Shown here in pieces: positions 6,059-8,251 of a stretch of 64,000 bases of DNA; position 1 is the first letter of the stretch; the number at the start of each line of letters is the position of its first letter. The notes under the pieces are model-generated. The model saw only the letters and a program-made list of their open reading frames with translations. It was not told the DNA's origin and did no database searches. The stretch comes from Candidatus Latescibacterota bacterium. GTDB taxonomy: Bacteria > Latescibacterota > UBA2968 > GCA-2709665. The stretch is taken from positions 1-64,000 of the forward strand of contig CAXXJS010000037.1 in assembly GCA_963662665.2 (NCBI GenBank), in the 5' to 3' direction. Position numbers and translations under genes: made by a program.

Positions 6059-6147
6059 GAGAACCCTCCTTGAAGGAATCAGAAATATGAATTGAACGGT
6101 AAAATCGCTACACTTGCTGTTTCCGGACTGCTAACCTTGATTCGCAA

Positions 6148-6903
6148 GTGCGCCGTGAAAAGGCGCGGAACTTCAGTGGGTGAGAGTCCCACCCGACAGA
6201 TGTTGCCACAGTCGGAAGCAATCGGAGCGGAGACGTAGGTAACGACATCTCCGAAGCCTCCGGTGTAGAGGGTCGCCAGGCGACTCGGCGAGTATGTGGG
6301 CTGAAACGTGAGTAAACGCTGAGCAGGCCTCGAAAAGGGTAATGCGGGAGCCGACCCGGCTTGCGAACGGGGAAGGCCGCCGTCGTTGGGGAAGCAGGCA
6401 ACGAGAGCACCCAACGGTCCCGCCGGGGTAATGGCGGAGGCACGCATACAAGGAGATCCGACGCAACACGGGAAGCCCCAGCGGTGGTGGAGAGCCACCA
6501 ACCGGAAGCCCGTGAGGGCCAGGCCGGGCCGTATGGGGTGGCGGACAGGCTCGTAGTACCTGTGATGCCGGGTAACGCCGGCGGAGGAAAGGGGCCTGAC
6601 TTCGGATGTGCTTGTGAAGGGGACAACTGTCGGGAGAGTGGCGCAAGCCTATAACCTCCTCCAGAATAAGACGAGGCGACTCCAGATCAAGCTAAGGTTT
6701 CAGGTGAAGCTGTCCGGGCAGATCGGGCAGTGTGTACCTGAAGGCGATGTCCGTCGGAGAGCCGGATGCGGTAACTCCGCACGTCCGGTTCGACGAGCGG
6801 GATGTGGAAACGGAGCACGGAGGGGCTATTGAGGCACCGCCAGACGAAAGGGGCGGGAACAGACAGGCCACTCCTAAACCACCGCGCCACATCTCGACTC
6901 TAC
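6148..6903 (+). mobile_element. Group II intron lacking an intact ORF (intron-encoded protein internally deleted)
   Basis: 5' GTGCG; domain III-like TAGTACC..GCCGGGTAACGCCGGCGGAGGAAAGGG; domain V GAGCCGGATGCGG..CCGCACGTCCGGTTC (6759-6791) with AGC triad; domain VI with bulged A6897; 3' end ..CTCTAC; EBS1 TTGCGAA (6361-6367) complements 5' exon TTCGCAA (6141-6147). Confidence 0.93.
6638..6750 (+). pseudogene. Remnant of intron-encoded reverse transcriptase/maturase in domain IV
   Basis: Short ..NKTRRLQIKL segment resembling IEP N-termini (KIRxLQRKL), followed almost directly by domain V; no RT core or YADD. Confidence 0.6.
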
Positions 6904-7081
6904 TTCTTCGGGGAAGTAAAACCGAATATATGCAAGTAGATAAAGGCGAATTGACTTCGGATTACCAGGATACACCAGGTCACTGGACGTGAACTGAAAA
7001 AACGTCCTTTTTGACGACCGTTACGCCCCGTTTCAGGGGTTTTCGTCGCGTCGCCGTGTTGCTGTTTTTTTCGAATTGGGG

Positions 7082-8251
7082 CTAACGGTTCGTCGTGTTC
7101 AAAAACGCCTCTTTCCACGAGGCAAACCGCCCATCCAGTATGGCGGTGCGCATTTCCCGCATTGTCGAAAGATAAAAGTGAAGGCTGTGAAGCGTCAACA
7201 GGCGCAGACCCAGAATTTCTTTAGAATGAACCAGGTGGCGCAGGTAGGCTCGAGAGTAATTCCGGCACGTATAGCACGTGCATCCGGCGTCGATCGGCGT
7301 GAGGTCTCGTGAATATTTCGCGTTGCGCAGGTTCATCCTGCCCCGCCGGGTGAACGCGGTACCGTTCCGTGCGTTTCGAGTTGGTATCACGCAGTCGAAC
7401 ATATCGATTCCACGGGATACGCCTTCGACGAGATCCTTCGGGGTTCCGTGGCCCATCAGATAGTGCGGCGACCCCTCCGGAAGACGCTCCACGACGGTTT
7501 CCACCGCCTGCCACGTGGCGGCGCCGGGTTCGCCCATGCCCGTGCCACCGACTGCGAACCCCCAGAATCCCATAGCTACCGTCTCATCCGCAAATCGCGC
7601 TCTCAAATCCGAATATGTGCTCCCCTGTACGATGCCGAACAACACCTGCTCGCAGCCGGTGGAAGTCCGGCCGGCCGACGTGGAAAACGCGTCCAGGCAC
7701 CGGGCTCCCCACCGTAACGTGCGCTCACCCGCAACTCTTGCATAGTCGTAGGTACAGGGATGAGCCGTACATTCGTCGAACATCATGATGACGTCGGCGC
7801 CGATCGCCTGCTGGACCTCTATTACCCGCTCCGGGGTAAACAGATGGCGCGAACCGTCGATATGGGATTGAAACAGAACGCCCTCTTCCGTAATCTTGTT
7901 CAATCCCGCAAGGCTGCTCAACTGATATCCGCCGCTATCGGTCAGGATCGCCCGTTCCCAACTCATGAACCCGTGCAGGCCACCTGCTTCGGCAATCAGA
8001 TCCACCCCTGGTTTCAGGGATAGATGATAGGCGTTGCCCAGGATGATCCTTGCATCAAGGTCTCTCAGATCCTGCTGCCCCAGCGTTTTCACTGTGCCAC
8101 GGGTACCGACCGGCATAAAAACCGGGGTCTCCACAACCCCATGCGGCGTATGAAGTACCCCTGCTCGTGCGTTCTGGTCTGTGGCCAATACCTCAAACCG
8201 GAAGCCTGCGTAACCGATTTCGCACCTCCGCCAACAGGATCCCGGATCCAT
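7082..8251 (-). CDS. tgt: Queuine tRNA-ribosyltransferase
   Basis: [47 protein letters not shown]-x-C-x2-C..H zinc site; start uncertain (ATG 8251 or ATC 8218). Confidence 0.95.

Follow-up and report, generated by a model that had tools for sequence, protein, structure and literature searches.

An ORF-less group II intron lineage, probably targeted by base pairing to the ends of a MITE family in an uncultured Latescibacterota genus

Introduction

How does an intron that encodes no protein come to occupy one exact position in the end of a non-coding transposon derivative? This question is raised by a locus in a 64,000-nucleotide stretch of Candidatus Latescibacterota DNA, referred to here as the window (positions 1 to 64,000 of contig CAXXJS010000037.1, GenBank assembly GCA_963662665.2). 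The window is contig C37 of a draft genome, G000, which comprises 66 contigs and 4.86 Mb and is 92% complete. At 6148-6903, on the plus strand, it holds a 756-nt group II intron without an open reading frame (ORF), inserted in the end of a MITE (miniature inverted-repeat transposable element). A sequence-only reading of the window had recognised this nesting and had proposed the MITE end as the homing site of the intron. Comparison with the other copies in the genome, and with relatives from the same genus, indicates that the element is very probably a retrohoming ORF-less intron, mobilised in trans and targeted by base pairing.

Results

A single insertion point in a repeat family

BLAST searches of G000 identified eight full-length ORF-less copies on eight contigs, which differ at 0-2 of 756 positions (at least 99.7% identity), two of them being identical. 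All eight lie at the same point of a MITE, 13 nt inside its left end, at TAACCTTGATTCG(CAA or CTA)|TTCTTC. The 5′ exon is TAACCTTGATTCGCAA in six copies and ..CGCTA in the other two, and TTCTTC follows the intron in all eight, while 68 empty left ends read uninterrupted across the insertion point. In the window, the 5′ exon ends with ..CTAACCTTGATTCGCAA and the 3′ exon starts with TTCTTCGGGG, and the uninterrupted repeat copy from 20106 reads CCTTGATTCGAAATTCTTCC. The eight occupied and 68 empty copies set both splice boundaries exactly, and they bear out the length and the two ends that had been proposed from the window. No ORF-less copy was found outside a MITE in G000, and two of three full-length siblings described below also lie in MITEs. 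The pattern is not due to chance, as eight copies all share one repeat position, and it supports the proposed use of the MITE end as a homing site.

Ribozyme anatomy

The assignment to group II rests on Rfam matches, on the near-identical copies and on a consensus fold. The intron begins with GTGCG and ends with CTAC, and it combines a domain V with the catalytic AGC, a bulged A in domain VI, the domain I architecture and a GUGYG 5′ end. The domain I core (6174-6311, plus strand) matches RF02003 (group-II-D1D4-4) with 89.7 bits (E 2e-18), over the gathering score of 49. A match to the domain V/VI model RF00029, sought as a check on the sequence-only reading, was obtained at 6757-6903 in a permissive Rfam scan (35.7 bits, E 5e-5), under the gathering score of 40 because domain VI holds an insertion of ~90 nt. 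Domain V (6757-6792, plus strand), as delimited by the RF00029 alignment, is nearly invariant in 17 sequences, with variation confined to the terminal loop. In the enlarged domain VI (6793-6903, plus strand), position 6897 is the bulged branch-point A, which precedes the 3′ splice site by 7 nt; in the 17-sequence fold it corresponds to alignment column 201, which is unpaired between pairs 96-200 and 95-202. The consensus fold from 17 diverse genus-wide copies comprises 116 predicted pairs in domains I to III, six of them with compensatory changes, and 45 predicted pairs in domains V and VI, one with a compensatory change, and breaks are few in both parts.

Domain IV has lost the reverse transcriptase (RT) ORF and retains two recognisable parts. 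The first is a DIVa-like stem (6579-6663, plus strand), GGAGG..CCTCC, which encloses what used to be the ribosome site and the start codon and is the presumed binding site of the intron-encoded protein. It is identical to the DIVa of a 1975-nt sibling at 56 of 86 aligned positions, the two fold alike, and the stem is kept in all ORF-less copies of the genus. The second is a stub (6664-6756, plus strand). The alignment to the sibling identifies it as what remains of the N-terminal part of the RT coding sequence, with all other ORF sequence gone; the remnant seen in the window alone was thus correctly interpreted. This stub is common to all ORF-less copies and has diverged from the sibling sequence. 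A domain IV without an RT ORF, but with an ORF remnant and DIVa, is what is expected of an ORF-less intron of the kind mobilised in trans in Thermosynechococcus elongatus.

The MITE family and the independence of the insertions

The host element of the window copy consists of a left end of 13 nt (6135-6147, plus strand), CCTTGATTCGCAA, which is the 5′ exon, and of a body with the right end (6904-7081, plus strand, 178 nt), which is the 3′ exon and ends with ..CGAATTGGGG. The family, defined by BLAST and nhmmer, is ~191 bp long and non-coding; in G000 it gives 77 BLAST and 80 nhmmer hits, 68 of the latter near full length, and makes up ~0.3% of the assembly. An alignment of 59 near-complete copies places the conservation bounds at CCTTGATTCG (start) and CGAATTGGGG (end), and the terminal inverted repeats, CCTTGATTCG and CCCCAATTCG, share 7 of 10 positions. 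Of these 59 MITEs, 38 have the same 4-mer on both flanks, compared with a mean of 14.4 and a maximum of 24 for shuffled partners (2000 trials); the duplicated 4-mers are chiefly of the YTAA type (CTAA 18, TTAA 12, TTCA 3, and others). Searches of 14 genomes from the same genus detected the family in 13, and searches of eight from the sister family in none. The window holds a further, empty copy (20106-20295, plus strand, core 190 nt), flanked by CTGA and CTAA.

A scan of G000 for paired termini 0.5-4 kb apart recovered occupied MITEs and ordinary genes only, and so yielded no autonomous partner. The 27 DDE_Tnp_1 matches in G000 belong to insertion sequence (IS) families with other ends, and none of the three families inspected has MITE ends. 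An IS5-like family (1698 bp, 15 copies in G000, one of them at C10 121086-122783), which generates 4-bp NTAR duplications, is only loosely similar to the MITE ends. Some MITE copies in G000 abut or are nested, as tandem or truncated pairs that share a TAA junction (C9 10031-10323, C36 43133-43446, C30 42478-42736, C61 175185-175360 and C24 7972-8270).

The occupied copies could in principle descend from a single event, in which the intron entered one MITE once and the 951-bp composite of MITE and intron then spread by the MITE transposase. The composite does retain the two MITE termini at its ends, and the occupied bodies on C37, C11 and C8 are mutually close (94.4-96.6%). However, the 3′-exon bodies of the nine MITEs occupied on the top strand are only 87.1-96.6% identical (they differ by 3.4-12.9%), whereas the introns differ by no more than 0.3%. 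The nearest body to each of the nine is that of an empty MITE in five cases and of an occupied one in two, with a tie between empty and occupied in the other two; the occupied body on C40 is 100% identical to an empty copy on C10. In the tree built from the 59 MITEs, occupied copies are dispersed between empty ones, and, as described below, occupancy tracks the exon allele. Divergent MITE bodies that carry near-identical introns and are scattered on the MITE tree therefore indicate independent insertions, and spread of a composite is very improbable. The suggestion in the sequence-only reading that the intron may be carried by the MITE is not supported, for the same reason, as the host bodies differ by 3-13% and the introns by at most 2 of 756 nt.

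Exon recognition by three pairings

The exon-binding site EBS1, TTGCGAA (6361-6367, plus strand), lies in the hairpin loop of an invariant CCCG/CGGG stem and pairs at 7/7 positions with the intron-binding site IBS1, TTCGCAA (6141-6147, plus strand). EBS2, AAGGGTA (6335-6341, plus strand), is a 6/7 match to IBS2, TAACCTT (about 6132-6138, plus strand), and its core triplet covaries with exon positions -11 to -13. EBS3 is an A (6431, plus strand), whose partner IBS3 is the T at 6904; this intron position, 284, covaries with exon position +1. In intron numbering, EBS1 occupies positions 214-220 and the EBS2 core 190-192. The placements of EBS1 and of the EBS2 candidate had already been proposed from the window; both are right, and they are now backed by covariation.

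The covariation analysis covered 46 intron/site records from genomes of the same genus, of which six were left out, giving 35 distinct combinations. In three of the six (L005, L032 and L029), the ends are poorly defined or the EBS region has diverged. The EBS1 loop is found in 11 sequences in the genus, and 25 of the 35 combinations pair at 7/7 positions with exon -1 to -7; the others have one mismatch (six combinations), two (three) or three (one). Beyond the type found in the window, EBS1 and the 5′ exon change jointly in nine further types across the genus. The EBS1/IBS1 pairs include TTGCGAA/TTCGCAA (G000), TTTCGAA/TTCGAAA (G006), CATGGAT/ATCCATG (G001, G007 and G009), TGTCAGC/GCTGACA (G001), TGACGAT/TCGTCA (G009), TATCAGC/GTTGATA (G007 and G013) and TGAATTT/AATTCA (G013). 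A blind scan of alignment columns recovered positions 216, 218 and 220 as partners of -3, -5 and -7, and position 284 (6431 in the window) as partner of +1, with A/T, T/A, C/G and G.T; this EBS3 pairing, in its four nucleotide combinations, is present in 34 of 35 cases. The EBS2 core and exon -11 to -13, read by eye from the table, combine as AGG/CCT, AGC/GCT, CTG/CAG and CGT/ACG or ATG, and a constant UA after the core, read in the same way, stands opposite a constant TA. Exon recognition is thus of the IIB type, with EBS1, EBS2 and EBS3 in domain I, and not with a delta nucleotide beside EBS1.

Occupancy within G000 follows the same pairing. The empty left ends (n=68, defined by at most 3 mismatches to a 26-nt pattern) carry the alleles TTCGCAA (11), TTCGTAA (12), TTCGTCA (7), TTCGAAA (6) and others that are rarer. 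The check proposed earlier, of occupancy against the IBS1 allele, gave 6 of 17 TTCGCAA sites occupied and 2 of 59 with other alleles (Fisher p 0.0012), and C at -3, present in all eight occupied sites, separates 8 of 20 from 0 of 56 (p 6.7e-6), although these p-values overstate independence because the MITE copies are related by descent. The empty window copy at 20106 has the allele TTCGAAA, and the sequence-only reading had suggested that this C to A change could account for its vacancy. The explanation fits, in that 0 of 6 TTCGAAA sites are occupied, but it is not needed, as 11 of 17 perfect sites are also empty.

A different account would be that the site is picked by DNA structure, namely the imperfectly palindromic MITE end, in the way in which IIC introns use terminator or attC hairpins. 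The left end does hold an inverted repeat, GATTCGAAAT...AAATCGAAT, and one full-length sibling, on C24, lies on the opposite strand of a MITE-end palindrome. Against this, the 7-bp EBS1, EBS2 and EBS3 covary with the exons over more than nine unrelated targets, and occupancy hinges on a single IBS1 base in otherwise identical MITE ends, so that selection of the site by structure is scarcely credible.

Full-length siblings and a candidate helper protein

Full-length siblings with an intact RT, which the sequence-only reading had suggested should be sought, are present in G000 in three copies of 1975 nt (C61 80849-82823, C24 8271-10245 and C16 124183-126157). They are 95% identical to the short intron over the 5′ 450 nt and 96.7% over the 3′ 151 nt. 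Each has an open frame of 463 codons, and the protein of 441 amino acids has the Pfam domains RVT_1 (96-317) and GIIM (340-407) only, with no D/En (HNH) endonuclease domain. These three siblings account for all RVT_1 and GIIM matches in the assembly, and the intact helper gene is thus directly observed. The best tblastn hit of the protein against plasmids is 65%, and the best hit in the PDB is the GsI-IIC RT (E 1e-53), but neither search settles the intron class.

The C61 sibling occupies the same MITE position as the short copies, at the allele ..CGATT. The C24 sibling lies in another MITE, within its palindromic subterminal region but on the opposite strand, at CCTTGATTCGATT|TTAGTCCCGG, and the C16 sibling is at a target-like site, TAACTTCGGATTCGGAA|TTCC, where nhmmer detects no MITE. 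The EBS1 of C16, AATCGAA, perfectly fits the C61 and C24 sites (TTCGATT), and the EBS1 of C61 and C24, TTTTGGA, fits the C16 site (TTCGGAA) with G.U pairing. Two other group II intron fragments, with 70% and 78% identity to the 5′ end, occur at C10 148815-148958 and C5 13735-13948, with no RT nearby.

Distribution and history in the genus

Intron matches were obtained in 13 of 14 same-genus genomes and in 16 of 21 in the family, and homologues of the 756-nt form in the genus have 75-97% identity and lengths of 720-819 nt. Several of these are again associated with element ends. Two ORF-less copies of G009, whose EBS1 is TGACGAT, are located at TTAACCTTGATTCGTCA|TTATTC, which is the same MITE family and position with the TCA allele. 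In G006, a 97%-identical copy follows TTAGCCTCAATTCGAAA, which has the geometry of the other inverted repeat of the MITE, although the downstream sequence is not that of the MITE and the flank encodes no transposase. G013 has a full-length sibling within an IS5-like element, 13 nt from the element's end; this element is a homologue of the 1698-bp IS of G000, and the RT ORF of another sibling is interrupted by such an element (L038, L110). In the G009, G006 and G013 cases, IBS2 spans the junction between duplication and terminal repeat.

The genome of G009, a single closed contig that is 99% complete, contains at least six ORF-less copies (including L024-L028), and three copies of 785 nt at different sites are identical at 783-785 of 785 positions. 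The same domain IV stub and the same sequence before domain V, unlike that of the full-length form, are found in all ORF-less copies, which therefore point to one ancient loss of the ORF. In a tree of the ribozyme part, short and full-length copies group by genome, and this grouping, despite the common stub, suggests that sequence may have been exchanged between the non-autonomous and the autonomous forms.

Introns of different species carry GC-rich palindromic inserts of 27-33 nt (GCCTGCCTG...CAGGCAGG) in three distinct terminal loops (L004, L008, L027 and L028; alignment A2 columns 65-94, 310-336 and 386-418), as if a tiny hairpin element had inserted repeatedly. In addition, the ORF-less copy L005 (G003, C52) has as its 5′ exon the 3′ end of another intron copy, in a tandem or nested arrangement.

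A proposed homing pathway and the case against it

These observations are best accommodated by base-pair-targeted retrohoming in trans. The intron would be transcribed and spliced with the 441-residue RT/maturase supplied by the three full-length siblings elsewhere in the genome. The resulting RNA-protein particle would then reverse-splice into DNA where EBS2 pairs with TAACCTT, EBS1 with TTCGCAA and EBS3 with T. This 17-nt target would consist of the TAA of the MITE duplication, the first 13 nt of the element and the next T, and as it is formed at the MITE left end, the family would offer dozens of dispersed, intergenic and presumably harmless homing sites. As an endonuclease domain is absent from the protein, priming of cDNA synthesis presumably takes place at replication forks. 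Within this pathway, we infer that the intron is spliced, that it is mobilised in trans, how its cDNA is primed and that it is active today. What we observe directly is its anatomy, the positions of its copies, the fact that they inserted independently, the EBS/IBS covariation and the intact helper gene.

Several points weigh against this proposal. The domain V/VI score falls short of the Rfam gathering threshold (35.7 vs 40). The remaining three records left out of the pairing count, L025, L007 and L030, have clear ends and form 5, 2 and 5 of 7 pairs, which goes against a strict pairing rule. In G000, 11 perfect TTCGCAA sites are empty, as are all 12 TTCGTAA sites, which offer six Watson-Crick pairs and one G.U. 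A simple deletion from the resident siblings would not yield the short intron, as its domain IV is strongly diverged (56/86 in DIVa), and given this divergence, recognition of the short intron by the sibling protein is presumed. The EBS1 of the siblings mismatches their own 5′ exons at -1 and -2 in the G000 assembly, which looks like a swapped variant block (intron positions 212-219) and is possibly due to mis-phasing of the draft or to recombination. Because the assembly is a 66-contig draft at 92% completeness, the copy numbers are minimum values, and some repeats may have been mis-phased. Both neighbours of the window copy, tgt and yajC, run antisense to it, so its transcription is not readily explained by the locus. 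In G009, no match to the intron protein or to GIIM and only one partial RVT_1 match were found, so a resident helper is not always evident; the helper of G009 is missing or off the chromosome. Finally, Logan contigs from 4 of 24 public runs (X12, X13, X7 and X15), which are fragmented at repeats, include none that joins the sequences on either side of 6148-6903, and so no exon-exon joint, and none that covers the whole stretch. The X7 contigs that end at 6904 have ..TAACCTTGATTCGTAA upstream, and are thus empty MITEs from elsewhere, while contigs from the X15 RNA library match the intron alone with 90-95% identity; these are relatives, possibly from DNA carry-over, and were given no weight.

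Part of this evidence would also be expected if the copies were stranded relics of a finished burst, now inert DNA in MITEs, for instance if the resident protein no longer recognised the intron. The lack of RNA support in the public runs, the unfilled perfect sites, the divergence of DIVa, the misfit of the siblings' EBS1 to their own sites in G000 and the G009 copies without a detectable maturase are all consistent with this. However, eight copies that are at most 2 of 756 nt apart, two of them identical, indicate very recent copying, all three helper ORFs are open, and domain V, domain VI, the EBS loops and the domain IV stub are conserved across species. We therefore regard the relic explanation as unlikely, though it deserves more weight than a spreading composite or structural targeting, and we retain trans-mobilised retrohoming as the very probable explanation.

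The tgt-yajC locus

In the window, the occupied MITE lies between yajC (5732-6058, minus strand, 108 amino acids, Pfam YajC E 3.1e-27), its downstream neighbour, and tgt, which encodes queuine tRNA-ribosyltransferase (7082-8263, minus strand, Pfam TGT E 1.8e-154), its upstream neighbour. Both genes are on the minus strand, so the intron and the MITE are antisense to both, as had been noted from the window. A promoter/terminator scan of 5700-7300 gave nothing on the plus strand upstream of the intron. Over all copies, by a rough longest-ORF heuristic, the upstream ORF appears to run in the direction of the intron at 5 of the 8 short copies and at each of the 3 full-length ones.

The target-site duplication CTAA is present on the left (6131-6134, plus strand), where its TAA is part of IBS2, and as the same 4-mer on the right (7082-7085, plus strand), which overlaps TAG (7082-7084, minus strand), the stop codon of tgt; the stop is retained because the MITE-side base is again C. 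In four relatives (G006, G001, G002 and G003), the tgt-yajC spacer is ~78 nt long, with neither MITE nor intron. The empty orthologous site of G002 and G003 is gcTAAcgcttcgtcg, with a single gcTAAcg, while G000 has gcTAA, then the MITE with the intron, then cTAAcggttcgtcg. The single TAA in G002 and G003, compared with the duplicated one in G000, makes the MITE insertion and its duplication directly visible. The likely order of events is that the MITE would have inserted into the CTAA overlapping the tgt stop, in the ~78-nt spacer, and that the intron would then have homed into the MITE.

Discussion

The locus stacks two non-autonomous elements, a DNA transposon derivative and a retroelement, each with a different helper. 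Many neutral landing sites thereby become available to the intron, which may in turn block the MITE. The covarying EBS/IBS sets amount to a ready table of natural retargeting for an endonuclease-less IIB-type intron, and the whole forms a clean and extensible natural system in an uncultured lineage. A further interpretation, which we put forward tentatively and consider doubtful, is that the ORF-less lineage may retarget between elements by coordinated changes of EBS1, EBS2 and EBS3, may swap ribozyme segments with its ORF-containing drivers, and may have multiplied in G009 without a resident group II maturase. If this multiplication were real, the helper would come from outside the chromosome, or an unrelated RT would be used.

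In the literature searched, which concerned group II introns with MITEs, repetitive extragenic palindromic (REP) sequences or Latescibacteria, no account was found in which such an intron homes into a MITE. The strategies themselves are already known, from RmInt2 in IS ends and from the ORF-less introns of T. elongatus, and the targeting of MITE ends by an ORF-less intron is a new combination of them.

The closest parallel in target choice is RmInt2 of Sinorhizobium meliloti, all copies of which lie in the inverted repeats of ISRm17 (PMC4615759, PMC5894124). There too the protein lacks an endonuclease domain, a multicopy transposable element provides the natural homing sites in its terminal inverted repeats, and either end or strand can be used, as is the case here for the left end in G000, the right-end-type sequence in G006 and the IS5-like end in G013. 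RmInt2 differs in that it has its own RT and targets an autonomous IS, whereas in the present case it is an ORF-less form that proliferates, and a non-autonomous MITE that is targeted. The intron class is probably also different from class D, to which RmInt2 belongs, as the C-terminus of the sibling protein, ...LGLTRLEAQTRNFPWANA, inspected by eye, does not contain the class D motif LX3AX3PXLF[V/A]HW (PMC4615759). RmInt1 likewise homes into a multicopy insertion sequence, ISRm2011-2, and may restrain its host element, but its target, as described, is within the IS and not in a terminal repeat, and the intron is autonomous (PMC5894124).

The IIC introns at terminators and attC sites resemble the present one in being small and endonuclease-less and in using abundant intergenic motifs, but they rely on a structural motif and a short pairing, in contrast with the full IIB-type EBS1, EBS2 and EBS3 pairing described here (PMC4424553). 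An intron and a MITE are also nested in the 'MITEtron' of Thiomargarita, where, however, the intron is of group I and the nesting is reversed, with the MITE inside the intron (PMC4853749). In Pseudomonas putida, two of nine group II intron copies are REP-associated (PMC1525189).

ORF-less introns are rare in bacteria and nearly always occur beside related introns (PMC4424553), and census methods for them have been described (PMC8919778). The best comparison for their proliferation is with the ORF-less TeI3 introns of T. elongatus, which have one deletion origin, form families that diverge in EBS and IBS, and are mobilised by the proteins of their TeI4 siblings (PMC2882425). As in that system, the ORF-less copies described here outnumber the ORF-containing ones, share a single origin visible in a common domain IV stub, fall into families with diverged EBS and IBS, and are presumed to be mobilised in trans. 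The two systems differ in that an assay demonstrated trans-mobilisation in T. elongatus, while here it is presumed from sequence, in that the targets in T. elongatus are not described as MITE ends in the available text, and in that the present ORF-less lineage spans many species of a genus (PMC2882425). The ORF-less introns of this genus outnumber their autonomous siblings, persist genus-wide and retarget repeatedly, and they therefore offer, beside T. elongatus, a second natural system for the proliferation of introns without their own protein.

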